The notes beneath the pieces are model-generated. The model was not told the DNA's origin, searched no databases, and saw only the letters and a list, made by a program, of their open reading frames with translations. A program made the position numbers and the translations under genes. DNA of 64,000 bases, taken from IMG/VR virus record IMGVR_UViG_3300045988_122188. One strand, 5' to 3'. Below are positions 2,027-53,651 of this stretch, in pieces. How positions within the stretch are numbered: the first letter of the stretch is position 1; every line of letters starts with the position of its first letter. The stretch is from a virus.

Positions 2027-4300
2027 TTAATTTTTTAGGCTTAACCAAGTGCGCCTCTTATTATGATTTGTCATAATACATCTCTTAAACGCTTCTGGCT
2101 CTGCAAGGAGTGCAAATCTTTTCTTAGCTCGTGTCAACATTGTATATAACATACAGTTATCAAGCAATTTGTAATGTGTATTGTCAATAATACCGATCAC
2201 AGTTTGCGCAGCTGATCCTTGAAGTTTATGCGTGGTTAATGCATATGCTAATTGCAGTTGTCCTAACTGAGCGAAAGAATATTCAATCAGCTTTTCTTCA
2301 ATATTTGCATTCATAGACACCAAACATATTTCTTTTTCTTTGTCAATCTCTGTAATGTATCCAATATCACCATTGAATACATCTCGCTCGTAATCATTTG
2401 AAGTCTGTAATACCTTATCTCCTAAATAGTATTTACGATCTTTGAATTCAACAAATGGTTTGTTACTACTAGCAAATAATTCTTTCTGTACTGCTTTGTT
2501 CAATTCATCTGTGCTGTTCGTACAATTACTTCTTCGTGGAGAAATAATCACAACATTGTCAAGCCCTTCCTCTTTGACAGATTTGATATACTGCTTTACT
2601 GCCATATTGAACAATGATTCTCTATTCTTCCTGAACAAATAAAACATATCATTTAGTTCACCATGAACAATTTTTAATTGTGGGCTATCCAATGGATTAA
2701 TCCCTCTGCGAATCTTTCTTGCATCCGTTAAAATACCAGATTTTTCTGCTTGTCTCATCGGTTTGGTAAGCTGTACACTATTTAAACCTTTCTTTTTCAA
2801 CAGATCCGAGAAAATATTACCAAATCCAATCGGTGGCAACTGCATATAGTCACCACAAAAAATTAATCGTGTTCCTGGTCGAATTGCCAATAAAAAATTA
2901 TAGAAAAGGCTCGCATTTGTCATGCTACTTTCATCCATGATTACTACATCAGCAGGTAATGGGTTATCTTGGTTATAACAAAAACTATCAATACCTTCTG
3001 CTACAAGTAACCTATGAATAGTCCGTGAGTCTAAGCCTGTTGCTTCTTTAATTCTTTGGGCTGCTTTTGCAGATAAAGCACACGCAACAATGCTATTATT
3101 TCTTTTTTGGTAGCATTTAATAATTGGTTTCAGAATTGTTGTTTTACCAGTTCCAGCTTCTCCAGAAATAAACACAACTTGGCAATTTAATGCTTTGTTA
3201 ACTCCTGTAATTTGTTCTTCTGAAAACATAAACCCTTCTTCATCTTCAACTTCAGAAATCGTCTGACTAATCTCACTATCTGTTATTGGTTCGTAATCTG
3301 TTGTATTTCCAAATGAATATTTCTCCATATCTTTAATAAATTCGTAAATATCCATTTCAATTTTATAATACGATTTCAGACCAATTTTATCTCCAGATGT
3401 ATATAAATAATTTGGTAATTTTTTATCTGATTCTTCATCAAACCATTCGTCAAATATAGGTAAGCATTCAGACGCTGCATTACTAATATTGCTTCTTAAA
3501 TTTTTGATATACACATATGTATGTCCATCATTATCACCAACTTGATGCAAGTCGTAAGAAATAAATGCGTTTAACCGTTGATTTGAGCATCGCAATTCTG
3601 GTTTTAATTTGAGCGCAATATCATCAACTCGTTTAAAGCCCATGCCCTTTACCCTAGTTAGTATATATGGATTTTGTTCAATCTGTTTTTTTAAAACACT
3701 TGGATTAGGTTCGGATTTCAATAATCTTTCAATCGTTGGTAACGTAACCCCATATGGTTGCAACATTACAACAATATCAGAAATCACATAGTTTTTAATA
3801 ATTTTATCTCTAAGCTTCTTCCAAGTTTTATCTCCTAGTCCTTTGATTTCTGAATGGTCAATCATCTCTAACTGACCATTCATTACATCTTCAACAACAT
3901 TAGGATATTTCGCAATTAACTGATCTGCGATCACTGCGTTCGTCTGTGTTTTTAAAAATACCTTTTGTGCTTCAAAAGTTTTAGGAACTTCAGCAACTAT
4001 AGAAAGTGGTTTATATTGGTATTCATTGTATTTCTTAGAATATGTCATATTGGCTTTAACCTTATATTTCGTTCCTAAATACAACTCCTGCATATTACCA
4101 ACCAATTTGCCACATTTATTCATTTTTTTATCGGATAAGTCATCAAAATCATTATTATTATATGGTTTACATTCTGGTAAATCTTCTGCTGTACAGAATG
4201 TGTAAATCCCAAATAAAGATTCTTCATTATAATAAATCTGATATAATGGGACAATCTCAAACTCATATTCTTTTGTACTATCCACCACTTTAGGCGACAA
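2027..4300 (-). CDS. recD2: RecD-like (RecD2-type) SF1 DNA helicase
   Basis: Walker A VFISGEAGTGKTT, Walker B VVIMDESSM, and the C-terminal motif LAYALTTHKLQGSAAQ. N-terminal HhH-like region. Confidence 0.85.
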   Translation of the reverse strand: MSPKVVDSTKEYEFEIVPLYQIYYNEESLFGIYTFCTAEDLPECKPYNNNDFDDLSDKKMNKCGKLVGNMQELYLGTKYKVKANMTYSKKYNEYQYKPLSIVAEVPKTFEAQKVFLKTQTNAVIADQLIAKYPNVVEDVMNGQLEMIDHSEIKGLGDKTWKKLRDKIIKNYVISDIVVMLQPYGVTLPTIERLLKSEPNPSVLKKQIEQNPYILTRVKGMGFKRVDDIALKLKPELRCSNQRLNAFISYDLHQVGDNDGHTYVYIKNLRSNISNAASECLPIFDEWFDEESDKKLPNYLYTSGDKIGLKSYYKIEMDIYEFIKDMEKYSFGNTTDYEPITDSEISQTISEVEDEEGFMFSEEQITGVNKALNCQVVFISGEAGTGKTTILKPIIKCYQKRNNSIVACALSAKAAQRIKEATGLDSRTIHRLLVAEGIDSFCYNQDNPLPADVVIMDESSMTNASLFYNFLLAIRPGTRLIFCGDYMQLPPIGFGNIFSDLLKKKGLNSVQLTKPMRQAEKSGILTDARKIRRGINPLDSPQLKIVHGELNDMFYLFRKNRESLFNMAVKQYIKSVKEEGLDNVVIISPRRSNCTNSTDELNKAVQKELFASSNKPFVEFKDRKYYLGDKVLQTSNDYERDVFNGDIGYITEIDKEKEICLVSMNANIEEKLIEYSFAQLGQLQLAYALTTHKLQGSAAQTVIGIIDNTHYKLLDNCMLYTMLTRAKKRFALLAEPEAFKRCIMTNHNKRRTWLSLKN

Positions 4301-13986: not shown

Positions 13987-15108
13987 TTACCAAACATCGC
14001 CTTCAGTATCATCTGAAGAATCATCAAAACCAGATCCCCATTCATCATCTGTAGAAGAGCTACTTGTCTGTTCGTCATCAGACTCACCGAAATCACTTCT
14101 TGCTGCTTCTGCCTTTTTAATAGCTTCAATCGCTGCATCAATTGCTTCTCTGGTGTATGTTTCTGAATCAATACTATCTTTGCTTGCGCCAGTGATAATA
14201 AGTTCTTTTCTTGCAGAATCTACGACTCTCTTTGTAGGATCTGCTTCTCCCCATCCATCATCTTCTACTTCAACTTCTTCTGTCTGAATTTCTGTCTTAA
14301 TATGTCCCCAAACTTCGATAGATGAATATGGCTTAACATTCTTCTTAAAAGTTTTTGCTAATTTCTTATTTGTCATATAGAATTCAGCATCATCAACAGA
14401 TGAATAACCAATAATCTTTCCATAAACGATAAAACGTCCTGTTGGCACATCATCTTCTTTTTCCTGTTCAATATTTGTAAAAACCATTGTCTGTTTAAAA
14501 TCAGATCTTACCTTATGCTCCTCATTATCAAGATCAATTTCTTTACTTGTTAAACTAATTTGTGTTGGAGACATTCTTGACCACTGGCGTTTAGTTCCGT
14601 TTTCCCCAGTAAAACTTCCATATTCAATATCTCCTTTAATGAATACACTCTGGTTATCTGCCATGTGTTCTGAAGCATATTTTGTTAAATCAAATGGATC
14701 TAATACCAGTTTTTTGTTAACGACCTGTCCTTTATCATTAGTCTCTTTCTCAAGACCAACCCTTGAACCAATCAATGACCAATCATCTCCAAGCCCAAGC
14801 TCCTTAACAGATTTAAAACGGTCAGCCCAAGGAATATCCTTAGTTTTGTATGTAGTTTTTTTACCGTTCTTTTCTCTTTTAAGGAAATAAACTTTTGGTT
14901 TTTCAAATGCCTGGATTTTACATCTAACTTTTACGTCAGGTTCTACTTTAACTCCGAAAGATAACGTTCGTTTACCTTTGCCTTTCTGCGTTTTACCTTC
15001 CTTATAAAAGTCGTCTTTTGCACAATCAGTGATTAATCCTTCTAACTGAAATGTACCTTTAGTTTCTGGTAAGTTGAAAAGTCTTTTAGATTTTGTGTTT
15101 TCTGCCAA
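13987..15108 (-). CDS. Putative ssDNA-binding protein with an acidic C-terminal tail
   Basis: Sits directly downstream of the Sak4-like gene. The C-terminus is DDEWGSGFDDSSDDTEGDVW, an acidic tail typical of SSB partners. The fold was not verified. Confidence 0.3.
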   Translation of the reverse strand: MAENTKSKRLFNLPETKGTFQLEGLITDCAKDDFYKEGKTQKGKGKRTLSFGVKVEPDVKVRCKIQAFEKPKVYFLKREKNGKKTTYKTKDIPWADRFKSVKELGLGDDWSLIGSRVGLEKETNDKGQVVNKKLVLDPFDLTKYASEHMADNQSVFIKGDIEYGSFTGENGTKRQWSRMSPTQISLTSKEIDLDNEEHKVRSDFKQTMVFTNIEQEKEDDVPTGRFIVYGKIIGYSSVDDAEFYMTNKKLAKTFKKNVKPYSSIEVWGHIKTEIQTEEVEVEDDGWGEADPTKRVVDSARKELIITGASKDSIDSETYTREAIDAAIEAIKKAEAARSDFGESDDEQTSSSSTDDEWGSGFDDSSDDTEGDVW

Positions 15109-15280
15109 ATAAATTTACCTCTTTCTGTTATTAAATTTGTTTAGTTAGTTTTTAGTTTGTAAATAAGTCATCAATTTATATCCACTGTCAACTCTGCCAA
15201 AGTCAACAGGAACAAAAAATAATTTTATCTGATCGGCTTATATTGTTATAATCGTTCTATTACGTTTATAACAAATGCGT

Positions 15281-15309
15281 CAAAAAAAATAATAAAAGCA
15301 AAAAGCTTT
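15281..15309 (-). terminator. Intrinsic terminator (AAAAGC/GCTTTT stem plus T-run) downstream of the sigma gene
   Basis: Palindrome at 15294-15309 with a T-run on the minus strand. It also works as the terminator of a tiny plus-strand unit. Confidence 0.5.
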
Positions 15310-15316
15310 TTTGAAA

Positions 15317-15856
15317 TTATAAGGATGGGATTAATTTATTTTTAATTTTTTTCAATTGATATTGAATTGCTTGATATGTAACACCAAGGGTATTTCCTAT
15401 TTCTTCGTTCGTATACCCTTTTGCCTTTAAATTAATAATTAACCTGTCCTTATTATTTAGTATTCGCATTTGCTCATCAAAACACAAAAAGAAAATTAAT
15501 TTTTTTTCATTATTTTTTTTATCAGCTAGCAAAAAAGAATATTCTTTTTCGTCTTCATCTAAATCATTCATTAACTGATTGTACGATAAGGTAAGTCGTT
15601 CATCTCTTTTATCTGCAAATCTCCATCGAGTATATGCTATAATTTCTTTTTGCATACATTTATATGCATATGTAGAGAATGATTTAGCTTTGGATTCATC
15701 ATAATCAATTGCTGCCTTACACAACCCAATAGCAGCGAATCCATAATAGTCATCAAAATCTTGTCTGCGGATACCGCATTTTGTCATAGCAGAGTAAATC
15801 AAATTATGATTTTGTTCTACCAATTTTCTCTGTTCGTCATTTAATTTCAACGACAT
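15317..15856 (-). CDS. Sigma-70-family sigma factor (regions 2 and 4)
   Basis: C-terminal HTH NLKAKGYTNEEIGNTLGVTYQAIQYQLKKI. N-terminus KLNDEQRKLVEQN is paralogous to 21899..22432. Confidence 0.7.
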   Translation of the reverse strand: MSLKLNDEQRKLVEQNHNLIYSAMTKCGIRRQDFDDYYGFAAIGLCKAAIDYDESKAKSFSTYAYKCMQKEIIAYTRWRFADKRDERLTLSYNQLMNDLDEDEKEYSFLLADKKNNEKKLIFFLCFDEQMRILNNKDRLIINLKAKGYTNEEIGNTLGVTYQAIQYQLKKIKNKLIPSL

Positions 15857-41242: not shown

Positions 41243-41893
41243 CTACCCAATTATATTCTGGATCAGCTCATAATACTTTGTCCTGCCGACATACGACTTA
41301 TGTTCTGCATCTTTTAATTCTTTCTTCAAAGTACATATATCTTTCTGATTATCCATACAATTCTGCATCACTTCTATGTATCGAATACAATTCTTGATTT
41401 TTCTGTGTAATTCTTGTAAGGTTTTAAGATACCCAACAATCACTGCACGTTTCGCAGCATCAATCTTTTTAAACTCAATCGCATGAAGAATATCACTTCT
41501 GGCAGAATCGGCATATGATAATGCCTGCTCTAATTCAAACTTCTTTTCTCCTAATTGATCTGAGTCATATGCTAGAAGTCCTACTATAGCTCTTTCCTCA
41601 GTCTCTATATTGTCGATCAATGTATTATCACATTCCCAATCCATAAAGCAATTTCCATTACCCTTACGCATTATTTCACTAGATTCCATAGGTTTTCCAA
41701 CTTTACCTAGCTCAATTTCTCTGGCATGAAATCCGTCTTTCATCCACGTATATTTATGCTTCAAACCTAAAATGTGCTTTGCTTGTTTGGAGGTAAATTG
41801 AGTAGCTTCAGACTTACGGTTATCACGAACGTATCTATTTCTTGCATGATCTCTTTTCACATAGAACTCTTCATTCGTAATTATGTATTTCAT
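41243..41893 (-). CDS. Hypothetical protein
   Basis: ORF of 216 aa. Confidence 0.45.
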   Translation of the reverse strand: MKYIITNEEFYVKRDHARNRYVRDNRKSEATQFTSKQAKHILGLKHKYTWMKDGFHAREIELGKVGKPMESSEIMRKGNGNCFMDWECDNTLIDNIETEERAIVGLLAYDSDQLGEKKFELEQALSYADSARSDILHAIEFKKIDAAKRAVIVGYLKTLQELHRKIKNCIRYIEVMQNCMDNQKDICTLKKELKDAEHKSYVGRTKYYELIQNIIG

Positions 41894-41939
41894 ACATCAC
41901 TCCTGTATTTAATTGTAGTTTTTTGGAAAAATTTTCATG

Positions 41940-41968
41940 TTGACGAACATGTTTAGAATTGTTATAAT
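41940..41968 (+). promoter_or_regulatory. Near-consensus sigma-A promoter on the plus strand: TTGACG, 17 nt, extended -10 TGtTATAAT
   Basis: -35 at 41940-41945, TG at 41960-41961, -10 at 41963-41968. There is no plus-strand protein gene downstream. Confidence 0.65.
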
Positions 41969-41974
41969 GATTTT

Positions 41975-42070
41975 AAGGATATTATTATCCTTTCAGATTA
42001 AACAATTCTAAATATCAAATTCGATTTTCTATCGTGCTGCCAACACGGTAGATTCAAAAAATCTTTTTTT
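41975..42070 (+). ncRNA. Candidate ~95-nt small RNA
   Basis: Bounded by the promoter above and an intrinsic terminator (AGATT/AATCT stem plus TTTTTTT at 42050-42070). Two internal hairpins: AGGATA-TTAT-TATCCT and CTATCGTG-CTGCCAA-CACGGTAG. Confidence 0.45.
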
Positions 42071-42086
42071 GTTATCTATGATTTGT

Positions 42087-42452
42087 TTAGTTGAAATTTT
42101 TAGTTTGTGTGAAAGTAGAAGTTTTACCAAAGACTTCTGCTTTCTTTTTTATTGTCTGTATTTTTATTCCAACATTGTATCTCTCTTTGTATGTAAATTG
42201 CAGGCATTTGATTATGTCAAATATGTCGTCCTGCCTAATATGAGAGAACAAATTCTCATCTTGAATAAATTCGATCCAATGATATGAAAGATCTTTATCT
42301 TTGCCATAGATCTTCATCTTTCTATCATCTGCTCGAATCTTATATTCACTCAGAAACCACGATGACATTTCTGATGAGTGTAAATCAAGTACATCAATAT
42401 GCATTTGATTTGATTGATTCGCTGCTAACATTTCTAATATTTGATTGTCCAT
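42087..42452 (-). CDS. Hypothetical protein
   Basis: ORF of 121 aa. Confidence 0.45.
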   Translation of the reverse strand: MDNQILEMLAANQSNQMHIDVLDLHSSEMSSWFLSEYKIRADDRKMKIYGKDKDLSYHWIEFIQDENLFSHIRQDDIFDIIKCLQFTYKERYNVGIKIQTIKKKAEVFGKTSTFTQTKNFN

Positions 42453-42466
42453 ACATATACCTTCCT

Positions 42467-43495
42467 TTATTCTGCCATGATTTGATGTACACGATAATTC
42501 TTATAGTCCTCATCTTTATATAGGTAACCAATACTTTTACCGATTACCGTTTGACGATCACTAAATTGTTTCTTCTTTATTCTATATGATATATAATAAT
42601 TATAATAAAAATCAATTGCAATATCACTAAATTGACGTGCGATTACAGATCGTGCAATTCCTTCTTTTGATTTAATATAATATAAATCTGCAATTGCCTT
42701 GATATCCATTTTAGATTTTAAATATTGTATAAAACCAGAATTAATAACATCAATGGTTGTCAATTTTTCATAAGATAAAGTATTGCCTGTTAATTCTAAT
42801 TGAGACTGCACATTATTATATATCCTCTTTTGCTCTGCTTTATATTCTTCTATATTATTACATTTTTTTCGTGGTATTAATACAAAATCATCATATATAT
42901 TCGTATCTCCCATTTTCAATTTATATTCATTCAATGTCTCGATAAAATCTTTGGAGACTGGTTTCCCAAAAATTGTTAAATCATTTTGATTAATATCCGA
43001 GAATTTTAGATTTCTTAACTCCTTTCCATTTATCCCATTATATAAACTCACAATGTGAAATCTAGTATTCAATTTGGTATCGGCTGATGCATTGCACGAC
43101 ATCAGATTCGAAATAAACGCATTTATTTTATCTGGCGTAACATAATTAACATTAACTCTATTTGAAAAATATATATCAACTGCTAATTGCAAGTTTATAA
43201 ATTTATCATTAACAAATGGATTATATTTAATGTAATTTTGTTCATATGCATAAGTATACAATTTCACAAGCTGGTCATATCTTTTTTTAATAGAATTCAT
43301 ACTTTTGGTTTTTTTACCTCTAGTATCTGATAATATAGCCTTTTGGATTGTGCCTGGTGCATACGTTAACCCAGATTCATTGTCGTCCGCAATATCAGAA
43401 TCTAATAACCAATTCCATGTTGGGCGACGTGATTCTGATACGTGAGAATCTATATAATTTTGTATCAATTCTTTATTATTCATAACATTCTCCAT
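42467..43495 (-). CDS. Tyrosine-recombinase-like protein; canonical catalytic motifs are not evident
   Basis: N-terminal SAM-like region and a box-I-like segment ELRNLKFSDIN. No clear HxxR or terminal Tyr motif. Immediately downstream of the MazF-like gene. Confidence 0.3.
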   Translation of the reverse strand: MENVMNNKELIQNYIDSHVSESRRPTWNWLLDSDIADDNESGLTYAPGTIQKAILSDTRGKKTKSMNSIKKRYDQLVKLYTYAYEQNYIKYNPFVNDKFINLQLAVDIYFSNRVNVNYVTPDKINAFISNLMSCNASADTKLNTRFHIVSLYNGINGKELRNLKFSDINQNDLTIFGKPVSKDFIETLNEYKLKMGDTNIYDDFVLIPRKKCNNIEEYKAEQKRIYNNVQSQLELTGNTLSYEKLTTIDVINSGFIQYLKSKMDIKAIADLYYIKSKEGIARSVIARQFSDIAIDFYYNYYISYRIKKKQFSDRQTVIGKSIGYLYKDEDYKNYRVHQIMAE

Positions 43496-43497
43496 TT

Positions 43498-43947
43498 CTA
43501 GGATGCCATTGCATTCATGTACGATAACATGCCGTTTTGTATTAAAATGCCATGCCCTATTTTTAACATTAAAGATAGATCAGATATTCTTCCCCAATAC
43601 TCTAAAAGATTATTCTTTGGAATTGTTCTTCCTTGCTCTAAATACACCTGTGATACCATTTTTAATCCATTACTGGTATTTGGATAAATGGTCACATGTG
43701 TCGGTATCCAGTTCCTTAATTTTTTTGTAATTGGATACACGTTAATCTCAGTGCTTGTATTATTACAAATATTATTAGAATATACGATGACTGGTCTTTT
43801 CCCATGCAAGATGTGACTACCTTCAATTTTCGGCAAATCTGCAAAATATATTCCCCAAACTTGAGGATTTTGATATTTGCCATATACATATTCTTTTCTT
43901 TTTCTGTTATCGTTTCCTTTTCTTTCTTTGTTAGTATATCCGTTCAT
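43498..43947 (-). CDS. MazF/PemK/EndoA-family endoribonuclease toxin homolog with a basic N-terminal extension
   Basis: GIYFADL...GKRPVIVYSNNICN...IPTHVTIY...SQVYLEQGRTIPKNNL matches B. subtilis EndoA as recalled (VYFADL, RPVLVIQND, LPTHVEI, ILLEQIRTIDKQRL). Start set at MNGY, which has a GAGGG RBS; the longest ORF begins at 43977. Confidence 0.8.
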   Translation of the reverse strand: MNGYTNKERKGNDNRKRKEYVYGKYQNPQVWGIYFADLPKIEGSHILHGKRPVIVYSNNICNNTSTEINVYPITKKLRNWIPTHVTIYPNTSNGLKMVSQVYLEQGRTIPKNNLLEYWGRISDLSLMLKIGHGILIQNGMLSYMNAMAS

Positions 43948-43996
43948 TTTACGTCCCTCAACTTTCCCCAGTTGCATTTTTTATTTTCATGAATTA

Positions 43997-44034
43997 AATA
44001 TACCATACTTTTTGCACCCTGTCAATAGGTGCAA
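43997..44034 (-). promoter_or_regulatory. Promoter with operator (copy B): -35 TTGACA at 44020-44025, 17-nt spacer, -10 TATATT at 43997-44002; inverted repeat TTGCACC/GGTGCAA
   Basis: Read directly. Near-identical to copy A at 1980..2017. Confidence 0.6.
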
Positions 44035-44106
44035 GAAAGAAAGTTAATTTTTATTGTGAACAAAGAATCTCTACATTTCTTATTATAATGCTACCATAGA
44101 ACAAAA

Positions 44107-44427
44107 TCAAGATATTTTTCGAACAGATGTTCTCTTTTTGTTCGAACACTTTACTTTGTGCTTACTTGGAAGGGGGAAATACTGTCTAACTTTATGAGGC
44201 TTATCCAGTTTCCATTTCTTTTCTTCAAAATCATAGTCACAAAAATCAAGCACTTCGTCCACACATCCATCATTATATTTGTAATCCACAATAACGGGAT
44301 ATGTTTTATATCTCATATAACGTGATGCATTATCTGGTTTTAGTGGCGGAATCTCGGCTGAAATCCACATAAGATTCTGGTTTGCTTTCTTTTCTTCCTT
44401 ATTTTGTCTAATCGTATTTATCTTCAT
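44107..44427 (-). CDS. Hypothetical protein
   Basis: ORF of 106 aa. Confidence 0.4.
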   Translation of the reverse strand: MKINTIRQNKEEKKANQNLMWISAEIPPLKPDNASRYMRYKTYPVIVDYKYNDGCVDEVLDFCDYDFEEKKWKLDKPHKVRQYFPLPSKHKVKCSNKKRTSVRKIS

Positions 44428-53329: not shown

Positions 53330-53401
53330 TCTTCATCTTCCTTTCTAAACTGTCTTATTTTTCTCTACACTCATTATTTTTGTATAACTGTATTCCGTAA
53401 A

Positions 53402-53479
53402 CTAATAGAAATAAAATCAACATTTAATTCCAACTATTAGTGTGCCAATCCTAATAGAAACCTATTCTATTCCTATTAG
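53402..53479. repeat. Operator or iteron-like array: CTAATAG(AAA) half-sites in both orientations at 53402, 53434, 53451 and 53473
   Basis: Read directly. Two inverted pairs with spacings of about 25 and 15 nt, upstream of the Bro-N-like gene. Confidence 0.5.
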
Positions 53480-53547
53480 TTCTCTATATAATCAACACCT
53501 TACCTATTAACAATTCTATGCTTAGTTAATCATTAATTTGTGTATAA

Positions 53548-53631
53548 TAAATTTGACAAAGAACCGACCTGCCAAATCGGTTCCTGCCAAATATTTCCGT
53601 AAAATAAAAAGAACCTTCCGTTCGGTTCTTT
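53548..53631 (-). terminator. Tandem intrinsic terminators downstream of 53652..53888
   Basis: AAAGAACC/GGTTCTTT at 53608-53631 followed by a minus-strand U-tract. GAACCGA/TCGGTTC at 53561-53583 followed by a T-rich tract. Confidence 0.55.
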
Positions 53632-53651
53632 GCCAAAATTATTATATGGAA

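Follow-up and report, generated by a model that had tools for sequence, protein, structure and literature searches.

Small RNAs that oppose a longer transcript include the 3'-overlapping type I antitoxins of Firmicutes, such as SR4/bsrG of the SPbeta prophage, RatA/txpA, and par RNA II/fst, and the plasmid countertranscripts CopA of R1, RNAI of ColE1, and RNAIII of pIP501. In phages, the OOP RNA of lambda pairs with the cII mRNA and triggers its RNase III-dependent decay (PMC12197685). The sar RNA of P22, which lies inside the arc-ant operon, and the c4 RNA of P1 and P7 are small antisense RNAs in polycistronic antirepressor operons (PMC12197685). Almost no regulatory RNAs of uncultured gut phages are known. 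The locus described here is a predicted plus-strand small RNA (sRNA) gene at positions 41975 to 42151 of a 64,000-nt stretch of DNA (the window) from the virus record IMGVR_UViG_3300045988_122188, an uncultured human gut phage with a genome of about 160 kb. The element is, with high confidence, a real structured RNA gene. That it acts in cis as an antisense RNA is about an even proposition, and the explanation as a whole, an RNA gene with cis-antisense action, is held with fair confidence. It would add the element to the phage cis-antisense sRNAs, a known class, as a new and well-supported member.

Like OOP, the predicted sRNA is short, has its own sigma-70-type promoter, is directed against a long operon, ends at an intrinsic terminator, and is complementary to the 3' end of the upstream gene and the adjacent intergenic region. 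It differs in length (about 177 nt versus 77 nt), shows no sequence or structure similarity to OOP, belongs to a phage whose host is probably of the Firmicute type, and overlaps a gene for an uncharacterized protein of 121 amino acids (aa) in a PemK-like operon. In this comparison, the effect of the sRNA on its target is a prediction.

The promoter of the sRNA lies in a 193-nt gap between the minus-strand open reading frames (ORFs) at 42087-42452 and 41243-41893. The initial annotation of the window had placed a plus-strand promoter, TTGACG-17-TGtTATAAT, at 41940-41968, and both inspection and a promoter scan found it exactly there, with a score of 12 of 13 over the two hexamers and the TG. 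Three sites in the window score at least 12 of 13, compared with 0.45 ± 0.69 in first-order Markov simulations (maximum of 2 in 60), and all three are intergenic. The -35 hexamer TTGACG (41940-41945, plus strand) varies at none of its six positions among 34 population variants, and TTGAC is invariant in all relatives. The extended -10 TGtTATAAT (41960-41968, plus strand) is invariant in all 68 loci that carry the element, with none of its nine positions varying in the population. Together, 0 of the 15 core promoter positions vary among the 34 distinct population sequences, compared with a background of 18% in the gap. Directly upstream of the -35, the A/T-tract block TTTTTTGGAAAAATTTT (41919-41935, plus strand) is conserved in all lineages, and the stretch 41907-41939 retains 27 to 31 of 33 identities even in the most divergent relatives. 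The position and composition of the block suggest that it is UP-element-like.

The sequence of this promoter predicts that it is active and recognizable by the host RNA polymerase. Genes of the window use Shine-Dalgarno sequences, such as AGGAG 6 nt before the ATG at 41893, and the host is therefore probably a low-G+C Firmicute or a member of the Clostridia. The pattern TTGAC-N-GAATTGTTATAAT is also found in metagenome-assembled genomes (MAGs) of gut Clostridia (L172-L174), ahead of what appear to be rpsU-like and rpsF-like genes and of a secreted-protein gene; the phage promoter thus mimics strong housekeeping promoters of Clostridia-type hosts. A scan of a bacterial genome collection with the promoter pattern detected no prophage copy, only unrelated strong promoters in Clostridia MAGs, which serve as a control for the promoter type.

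Relatives of the locus were gathered through the flanking 216-aa and 121-aa proteins and comprised 51 IMG/VR, 19 Logan/ENA, and 34 metagenome loci. The metagenome loci came from a scan with a profile of the 121-aa family; almost all were close relatives that added little covariation. Most relative loci are near-identical to the window, and the informative divergence is found in L060/61, L062, L063, L064, and L068-70, where the 121-aa protein is 41 to 75% identical to that of the window. Synteny is constant: a PemK-like gene, a 338- to 345-aa gene, a 116- to 128-aa gene, a gap of about 180 to 270 nt, and a gene of about 211 to 226 aa, which is split into two ORFs in L062. One copy of the element is present per genome.

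The predicted transcript is about 177 nt long (41975-42151, plus strand), with its start placed at the first purine, 7 nt past the -10, and its end within or just after the U-tract. The fold of 41975-42152 has a minimum free energy (MFE) of -49.7 kcal/mol (z of -7.1 versus 200 dinucleotide shuffles). Two strong hairpins and a terminator had been annotated initially, and the two hairpins were recovered, at 41975-41992 (AAGGATA/TATCCTT) and 42029-42051. The first is the 5'-terminal hairpin H1 (AAGGAUA-UUAU-UAUCCUU, 41975-41992, plus strand), which begins 6 nt after the -10 in all lineages. In an alignment guided by a covariance model (CM), three of its seven pairs are compensatory and its G·U pairs occur on the plus strand only. 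In L068 and L069, a longer, 12-bp hairpin replaces H1 at the same place.

H1 is followed by the 5' strand of a long bulged stem (41993-42027, plus strand), which holds the near-invariant ACAAUUCUAAAUA at 42002-42014; 12 to 15 of the 15 positions of 42001-42015 are identical in all lineages. At the tip of this stem is the 9-bp apical hairpin H2 (42028-42052, plus strand), whose arms CTATCGTG/CACGGTAG at 42029-42051 enclose an invariant 7-nt loop, CUGCCAA, at 42037-42043. Seven of the nine H2 pairs have changed on both sides, with 99.5 to 99.7% of cells paired, and other lineages have U-A or G-C in place of the U·G at 42032/42048. The 3' strand of the long stem and the linker (42053-42110, plus strand) are variable, with 20 to 49 of 59 identities and with indels, among them an in-frame deletion of 9 nt shared by L058 and L059. 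This segment contains the stop codon of the 121-aa ORF (42087-42089) and an A6TCT7 stretch, and it keeps its complementarity to 41993-42027. In each lineage, the MFE fold joins the 41993-42027 strand to the segment 3' of H2, and the duplex beats shuffles in 10 of 11 lineages (z of -2 to -4). A three-part drawing thus fits the RNA best, with the 5' hairpin first, then a single long bulged stem-loop, and finally the terminator.

The intrinsic terminator is located at 42111-42150 and would function as such on the plus strand only. It has a 15-bp stem (42111-42125/42130-42144), an ACCA loop, and U6, with the T6 at 42145-42150, and is the top terminator-like site of the whole 15-kb scan. RNAalifold keeps 13 of its 15 pairs, and 99.8% of cells are paired. 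The terminator annotated initially at 42050-42070 was misplaced: that stem, CAAAAAA-TCT-TTTTTTG, consists of A/U pairs only, was not called by the scan, and is lost in L060-L062. The proposed RNA of about 95 nt ending at 42070 is accordingly replaced by one of about 177 nt that ends within the convergent gene. The terminator sits inside the last 22 codons of the 121-aa ORF, and its variation is limited to changes between G·U and A-U or G-C that are permissible only on the plus strand. It is kept where the encoded protein tail diverges (in L062, about 3 of 20 residues are identical) or is truncated (P0025, whose protein ends inside the terminator hairpin), and the C-terminal tail it encodes is the least conserved part of the 121-aa protein. 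The retention of the hairpin under these changes suggests that the terminator is maintained for its own sake and not for the protein tail.

Covariation in related phages is present at this locus. The RNAalifold consensus, made from 34 sequences, has three helices with 28 pairs; pair statistics were taken on 33 distinct rows (924 cells), in which 99.5% of cells are paired. Both sides have changed in 12 of the 28 pairs, versus 3.0 ± 1.4 in column shuffles (none of 500 reached 12), and controls with slid partners gave 0 to 3 double-changed pairs. In the CM-guided alignment, 10 of the 16 pairs of H1 and H2 are compensatory. The covariance model itself, built on the 5' 92 nt of the element, finds it in all 45 searched loci that hold the region, always antisense to, and just downstream of, the 121-aa gene. 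The promoter, the ACAATTCTAAATA segment, the CTGCCAA loop, and the terminator are kept in relatives while the stems covary, and the linkers and the surroundings of the 121-aa stop codon drift and carry indels. Patchy conservation of this kind is what an RNA gene would be expected to show.

Only the folding strand can tolerate G·U pairs. The plus strand has 96 G·U cells at 11 pairs versus 4 A·C cells, three of which are alignment slips, and pairing amounts to 99.5% if the RNA is read as plus-strand versus 89.5% as minus-strand. This excess, together with the one-sided U-tract, indicates that the functional RNA is the plus strand. Read on the minus strand, the terminator stem has two A·C mismatches and no U-tract; the possibility that the hairpins are minus-strand terminators of the 121-aa gene was rejected on these grounds. 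The conservation, the covariation, and the strand-specific G·U pairs strongly support the initial proposal of an sRNA, antisense, or insulator element between minus-strand operons, as far as this site is concerned.

The absence of a plus-strand protein gene here, noted initially, was borne out: no conserved plus-strand ORF and no ORF with a Shine-Dalgarno sequence was found in the sRNA. A small plus-strand ORF was considered and rejected because the sole ATG (42078) is missing from divergent lineages and opens a frame that reaches the terminator without a stop. No match was obtained in Rfam 15, which includes the phage c4 antisense RNA and Firmicute sRNAs, at gathering thresholds; at lenient thresholds the best scores were 11 to 18 bits (E > 0.6). 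A new RNA family could be registered for this element. The sequence by itself makes an unusually complete case, with a consensus promoter, a structure that covaries, a strand that can be assigned, and a terminator preserved within the opposing gene.

The gene opposing the sRNA, that of the 121-aa protein (42087-42452, minus strand), belongs to a family conserved down to 41% identity with many invariant residues. Its last 62 coding nucleotides and the stop codon (65 nt) are antisense to the 3' end of the sRNA. The operon opens with a PemK/MazF-like growth inhibitor (Pfam E of 2e-15, PHROG E of 3e-15), followed by a 342-aa protein with a weak integrase-N/SAM-like match. Neither the 121-aa nor the 216-aa protein had an informative match in Pfam, PHROGs, NCBIfam, or PADLOC; the 216-aa protein gave a weak PHROG match of unknown function and a sub-threshold NCBIfam match. 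Sequence searches of the PDB with the neighboring proteins gave no significant match, and the AlphaFold2 model of the 121-aa protein had a pLDDT of 50.

Two promoters conserved across lineages precede the PemK/MazF-like gene on the minus strand. The first, TTGACA-17-TGgTATATT (43997-44025), with conserved -35 and -10, is likely the source of the transcript opposed by the sRNA; the second, TTGATT-17-TATAAT (44082-44110), lies upstream of it and shows conservation in every lineage. The -35 of the second of these tandem promoters lies within a covarying hairpin, TTGCACC...GGTGCAA. A terminator scan predicted no minus-strand terminator between 42087 and 41894. For this reason, and given the conserved upstream promoters, the minus-strand transcript probably reads through the sRNA gene into the 216-aa gene.

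In the favored explanation, a strong host sigma-A-type promoter would start transcription at about 41975. The RNA would form a 5' hairpin and then a long bulged stem-loop whose 9-bp tip shows the CUGCCAA loop, and transcription would end at the plus-strand-only terminator at 42111-42150, giving about 177 nt. The two conserved promoters (44110-44082 and 44025-43997) would produce a minus-strand mRNA for the PemK/MazF-like, 342-aa, 121-aa, and probably 216-aa proteins. Because the neighbors are all on the minus strand and no minus-strand terminator follows the 121-aa gene, the sRNA would be fully complementary to an internal 177-nt part of this polycistronic mRNA. The CUGCCAA loop would contact the UUGGCAG loop of the mRNA and seed a long duplex, which a double-strand RNase would cut, and convergent transcription from the strong promoter would also hinder incoming polymerases. 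As the outcome, expression of the toxin-like operon would be lowered, or the downstream genes would be uncoupled from the operon. The regulated genes may thus be upstream (the toxin-like operon) or downstream (the 216-aa gene onward).

The features of the RNA in this scheme resemble those of the plasmid countertranscripts, which likewise have a small 5' stem-loop and a long bulged stem-loop with a 6- to 7-nt recognition loop. The perfect complement of the sRNA loop would be presented by a mirror hairpin of the sense RNA, so that a kissing-loop start would be possible. Unlike the plasmid RNAs, the sRNA has no replication gene or origin context and no homology to them, and attenuation or translation control of rep is inapplicable.

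Several points weigh against the favored explanation. The expression of the RNA, its target, and its outcome are predicted, as are the transcription start, the 3' end, and the read-through of the sense transcript, and the use of a sigma-A-type promoter is suggested by the Shine-Dalgarno sequences and by the promoter look-alikes in Clostridia. The real divergence comes from about five lineages, and the number of independent events behind the compensatory changes is accordingly small. No ribosome-binding site lies within the RNA, the Shine-Dalgarno sequence of the 216-aa gene being 72 nt beyond its 5' end; a direct block of translation is therefore excluded. Finally, an inverted repeat (41952-41963/42001-42012) is left unexplained, with its left arm outside the predicted RNA.

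The convergent geometry, the consensus promoter, and the shortness of the unit would also fit a transcriptional insulator, in which promoter and terminator serve only to block polymerases leaving the PemK-like operon and the RNA product is irrelevant. The lack of a predicted minus-strand terminator in the gap agrees with such a role, as does the presence of Bro-N/ANT and P22-type (P22_AR_N) antirepressor homologues among the genes downstream of the element in relatives, whose leaky expression would plausibly be harmful. However, promoter interference does not need selection on the fold, which is apparent from the 12 compensatory pairs, the invariant loop, and the plus-strand G·U pairs. Insulation as the sole function is thus a poor prospect, although the effect can act alongside the antisense mechanism.

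With regard to the downstream genes, the sRNA resembles P22 sar and P1/P7 c4 in being embedded before antirepressor genes, in its case in relatives. In the window, the genes immediately downstream of the element had no antirepressor domains in scans against Pfam, PHROGs, and other libraries, which sets it apart from the sar and c4 operons. Further, sar covers the ribosome-binding site of ant, whereas the sRNA covers none, and c4 is processed from the sense transcript, whereas the sRNA has its own promoter. The element lies at the exit of a module that would be driven by host polymerase and is opened by a MazF/PemK-like growth inhibitor, and in relatives it lies upstream of antirepressor-type genes. 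The sRNA may therefore determine the duration of expression of this toxin-like module, early or lysogenic, or it may insulate the module from developmental genes.

Because the opposed operon opens with a PemK/MazF-like growth inhibitor, an RNA antitoxin of type I or III that neutralizes this toxin, or a small hidden toxin peptide, was also considered. Type I systems of Firmicutes typically have convergent antisense RNAs with an overlap at the 3' end. Like those antitoxin RNAs, the sRNA is convergent with a 3' overlap of tens of nucleotides, strongly structured, and equipped with its own terminator, and it is found in an accessory module of a large Firmicute-type phage. It differs in that it opposes a type II-like protein of the PemK/MazF fold and two larger proteins instead of a hydrophobic toxin. 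The overlapped gene is the third of the operon, about 1.4 kb from the toxin gene, and no PADLOC defense model matched. For a type I antitoxin, no small hydrophobic ORF is overlapped; the sole minus-strand mini-ORF is 33 aa long and charged and has no Shine-Dalgarno sequence. A type III (ToxI-like) antitoxin was rejected since there are no tandem repeats in 41500-44400 and the RNA is antisense to and downstream of the toxin gene. An RNA antitoxin of either type is very improbable.

The unexplained inverted repeat consists of a left arm, TTTAGAATTGTT (41952-41963), whose position in the promoter spacer and the extended -10 puts it ahead of the predicted start, and a right arm, AACAATTCTAAA (42001-42012), inside the sRNA. 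This 12-bp repeat is conserved in all lineages. In L062, a matched change (A→T/T→A) has occurred in both arms. In L068-L070 the right arm is duplicated in tandem, and in L068 and L069 the spacing of the arms shifts by 31 nt. A degenerate direct copy, TATTTAATTGTA at 41906-41917, adjoins the Shine-Dalgarno sequence of the 216-aa gene. The predicted RNA begins past the left arm; folding of the repeat would therefore be confined to the minus-strand mRNA or to DNA. Another possibility is that the two arms are binding sites for a protein that controls the sRNA promoter.

If these TTTAGAATTGT-type motifs were repressor operators or integrase-arm-type sites, the promoter-like sequence would be secondary. 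The inverted pair with its direct and tandem copies, the covariation of both arms in L062, and an integrase-like 342-aa protein encoded about 400 nt away are in line with a site at the DNA level. However, such a site leaves the covarying H1 and H2 and the plus-strand terminator unaccounted for, and the 31-nt shift of the arms does not favor it. A comparison with the control region of a Cro/C1-type gene in the window found no shared motif, and TAGAATTGT is only weakly overrepresented in the window (6 versus 1.6 expected), with two of the six copies being the repeat itself. A DNA-level site in place of an RNA gene is thus quite improbable, but it could coexist with the sRNA and control its promoter.

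The loop sequence of H2 is also found elsewhere in the window. CTGCCAA occurs 12 times, compared with 5.3 ± 2.3 expected; 10 copies are on the plus strand and 2 on the minus strand. The copies include those at 1304, 15102, 15194, 42037, 53569, and 53584, and several are intergenic. The one at 15102-15108 coincides with the TTG start codon region (TTGGCAG) of a single-stranded DNA-binding protein (SSB)-like gene, and that at 1304-1310, just past a stop codon, may be another start-codon copy. In the gap 53330-53651, the invariant block TGTATAATAAATTTGACAAAGAACCGACCTGCCAAATCGGTTC (53541-53586) stands among polymorphic flanks. The block contains an invariant 7-bp hairpin (53560-53582) with CTGCCAA in its loop, upstream of a Bro-N gene, and the sRNA model R1 scores the region at 21.9 bits (E of about 0.045). 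TTGGCA on the minus strand is a 5/6 match to the -35 consensus, and this likeness may explain part of the CTGCCAA excess.

These copies bear on the possibility of a trans-acting sRNA, in which the CUGCCAA loop and/or ACAAUUCUAAAUA would be a seed for UUGGCAG in phage leaders or in host mRNAs and the overlap with the 121-aa gene would be incidental. The loop is invariant while its stem covaries, and the 10 plus-strand copies place UUGGCAG in minus-strand mRNAs, with copies at the start of the SSB-like gene and in the hairpin before the Bro-N gene. On the other side, the enrichment was spotted post hoc, the intergenic TTGGCA copies may simply be sense promoters, and, of the CTGCCAA copies in the 53-kb gap, the second is polymorphic. 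In the predicted long stem, the ACAAUUC segment is engaged in pairing. An RNAduplex scan of all translation-initiation regions gave only long AU-rich pseudo-duplexes, which were discarded. Action in trans in place of cis-antisense action is thus unlikely.

Three further schemes, taken as a set, are somewhat less likely than action in trans. In the first, an early RNA made by the host polymerase would dock its CUGCCAA onto UUGGCAG loops or leaders and coordinate several operons; the candidate docking sites would be the hairpin at 53560-53582 before the Bro-N gene and, at 15108, the region where the SSB-like gene starts. In the second, the RNA would be an "antitoxin" of a MazF-family toxin operon, with a hybrid type I/type II logic. 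In the third, the inverted repeat would let the leader of the sense mRNA switch between two folds depending on the bound antisense RNA.

A second plus-strand unit at 15242-15311, sharing the 11-mer ATTGTTATAAT with the sRNA promoter, had been proposed initially as a sister of the sRNA gene. The 11-mer does occur exactly twice, at 15242 and 41958, and, given one copy, a second is expected 0.33 times per window. TGnTATAAT is present 8 times versus 7.8 expected, as by chance. Nothing aligns between the two sites beyond the 11-mer. The -35 of the second site is poor (TTTATC, 3/6), and the promoter scan omits it. Its extended -10 varies at four of nine positions (TGc, TAt, TATGAT, and TATATT) among 32 distinct population sequences; across the entire gap, 15% of positions vary. 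The 60-nt "RNA" of this site has no fold signal versus shuffles (z of -0.28), and the R1 model gives 14 bits (E of 2.5). A similarity of 26 to 28 nt between 15135-15160 and 42081-42108 is not significant (E of 0.17).

The hairpin at 15294-15311, thought to end the plus-strand unit, has a weak A/T-rich stem with 2 G-C pairs and, on the minus strand, a U-run after it. Where the adjacent sigma-factor gene is of another allele, another hairpin stands in its place, indicating that it is the terminator of the sigma gene. The second site is thus treated as a coincidence, a chance match of 11 nt, and the proposal of an sRNA or related element is not supported there. Strong promoters of the TTGAATTGTTATAAT type are commonplace in gut Clostridia; the shared 11-mer is no mark of a family. 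A shared "extended -10" of this kind in AT-rich phage DNA should be treated with caution, as it is no evidence of a family.

The sigma-factor gene (15317-15856, minus strand) has alleles at 100, 63, and 52% aa identity in genomes that are about 98% identical. Likewise, the 216-aa gene (41243-41893, minus strand) is a mosaic cassette, with alleles at 100 and about 60% aa identity in a background of about 98% identity. These sharply different alleles indicate cassette-like replacement with breakpoints at gene borders. In one population variant (L007, IMGVR_UViG_3300045988_110202), an ORF-less insertion of about 455 nt (2547-3000) separates the Shine-Dalgarno sequence of the 216-aa gene from its ATG (about 41894-41897 of the window). 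The insertion holds a RAGATH-18 RNA (RF03064; 73.6 bits versus a threshold of 44.9). TnpB nucleases of the IS607 type are guided by RAGATH-18-derived RNAs (PMC11061315), and the insertion resembles a miniature form derived from such an element, without a protein gene.

The window has a G+C content of 33%, and nearly all of its ORFs are on the minus strand. It encodes a DnaE-type polymerase, a RecD2-like helicase, RecJ, NAMPT, a flotillin, a sigma factor, and a tyrosine integrase. About 50 IMG/VR contigs (80 to 170 kb) and many human gut metagenome contigs match it at 90 to 100% identity. Neither megablast searches with the DNA nor tblastn searches with the 216-aa protein found a match among the GenBank phages of INPHARED, so there is no cultured relative of this phage group in that collection. 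As far as sampled, the sRNA element is confined to one group of human gut phages. Six metagenome loci (L238, L240, L241, L257, L259, and L264) lie on phage-bearing contigs of 198 to 218 kb, compared with the IMG/VR genomes of about 160 kb. These contigs might hold host flanks of an integrated prophage, or they might be concatemers.

The other genuine plus-strand unit of the window is a protein gene that was missed initially, encoding a 67-aa Cro/C1-type helix-turn-helix (HTH) protein (29995-30198; Pfam HTH_26, E of 1.4e-14). It has a promoter, TTTACA-17-TGtTACAAT (29945-29973), a GGAGG Shine-Dalgarno sequence, and a hairpin with a T-run after the stop codon; the unit spans 29945-30238. The gene is divergent from a minus-strand promoter at 29913-29885 that scores 12 of 13, in a switch-like arrangement. 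Next to this unit, at 30239-30376 on the minus strand, Rfam reports a tRNA (46.4 bits over 138 nt) where ARAGORN finds none. The tRNA halves are normal-looking and are split by about 70 nt in the region of the anticodon loop, which could be an intron-like insertion or a disrupted tRNA.

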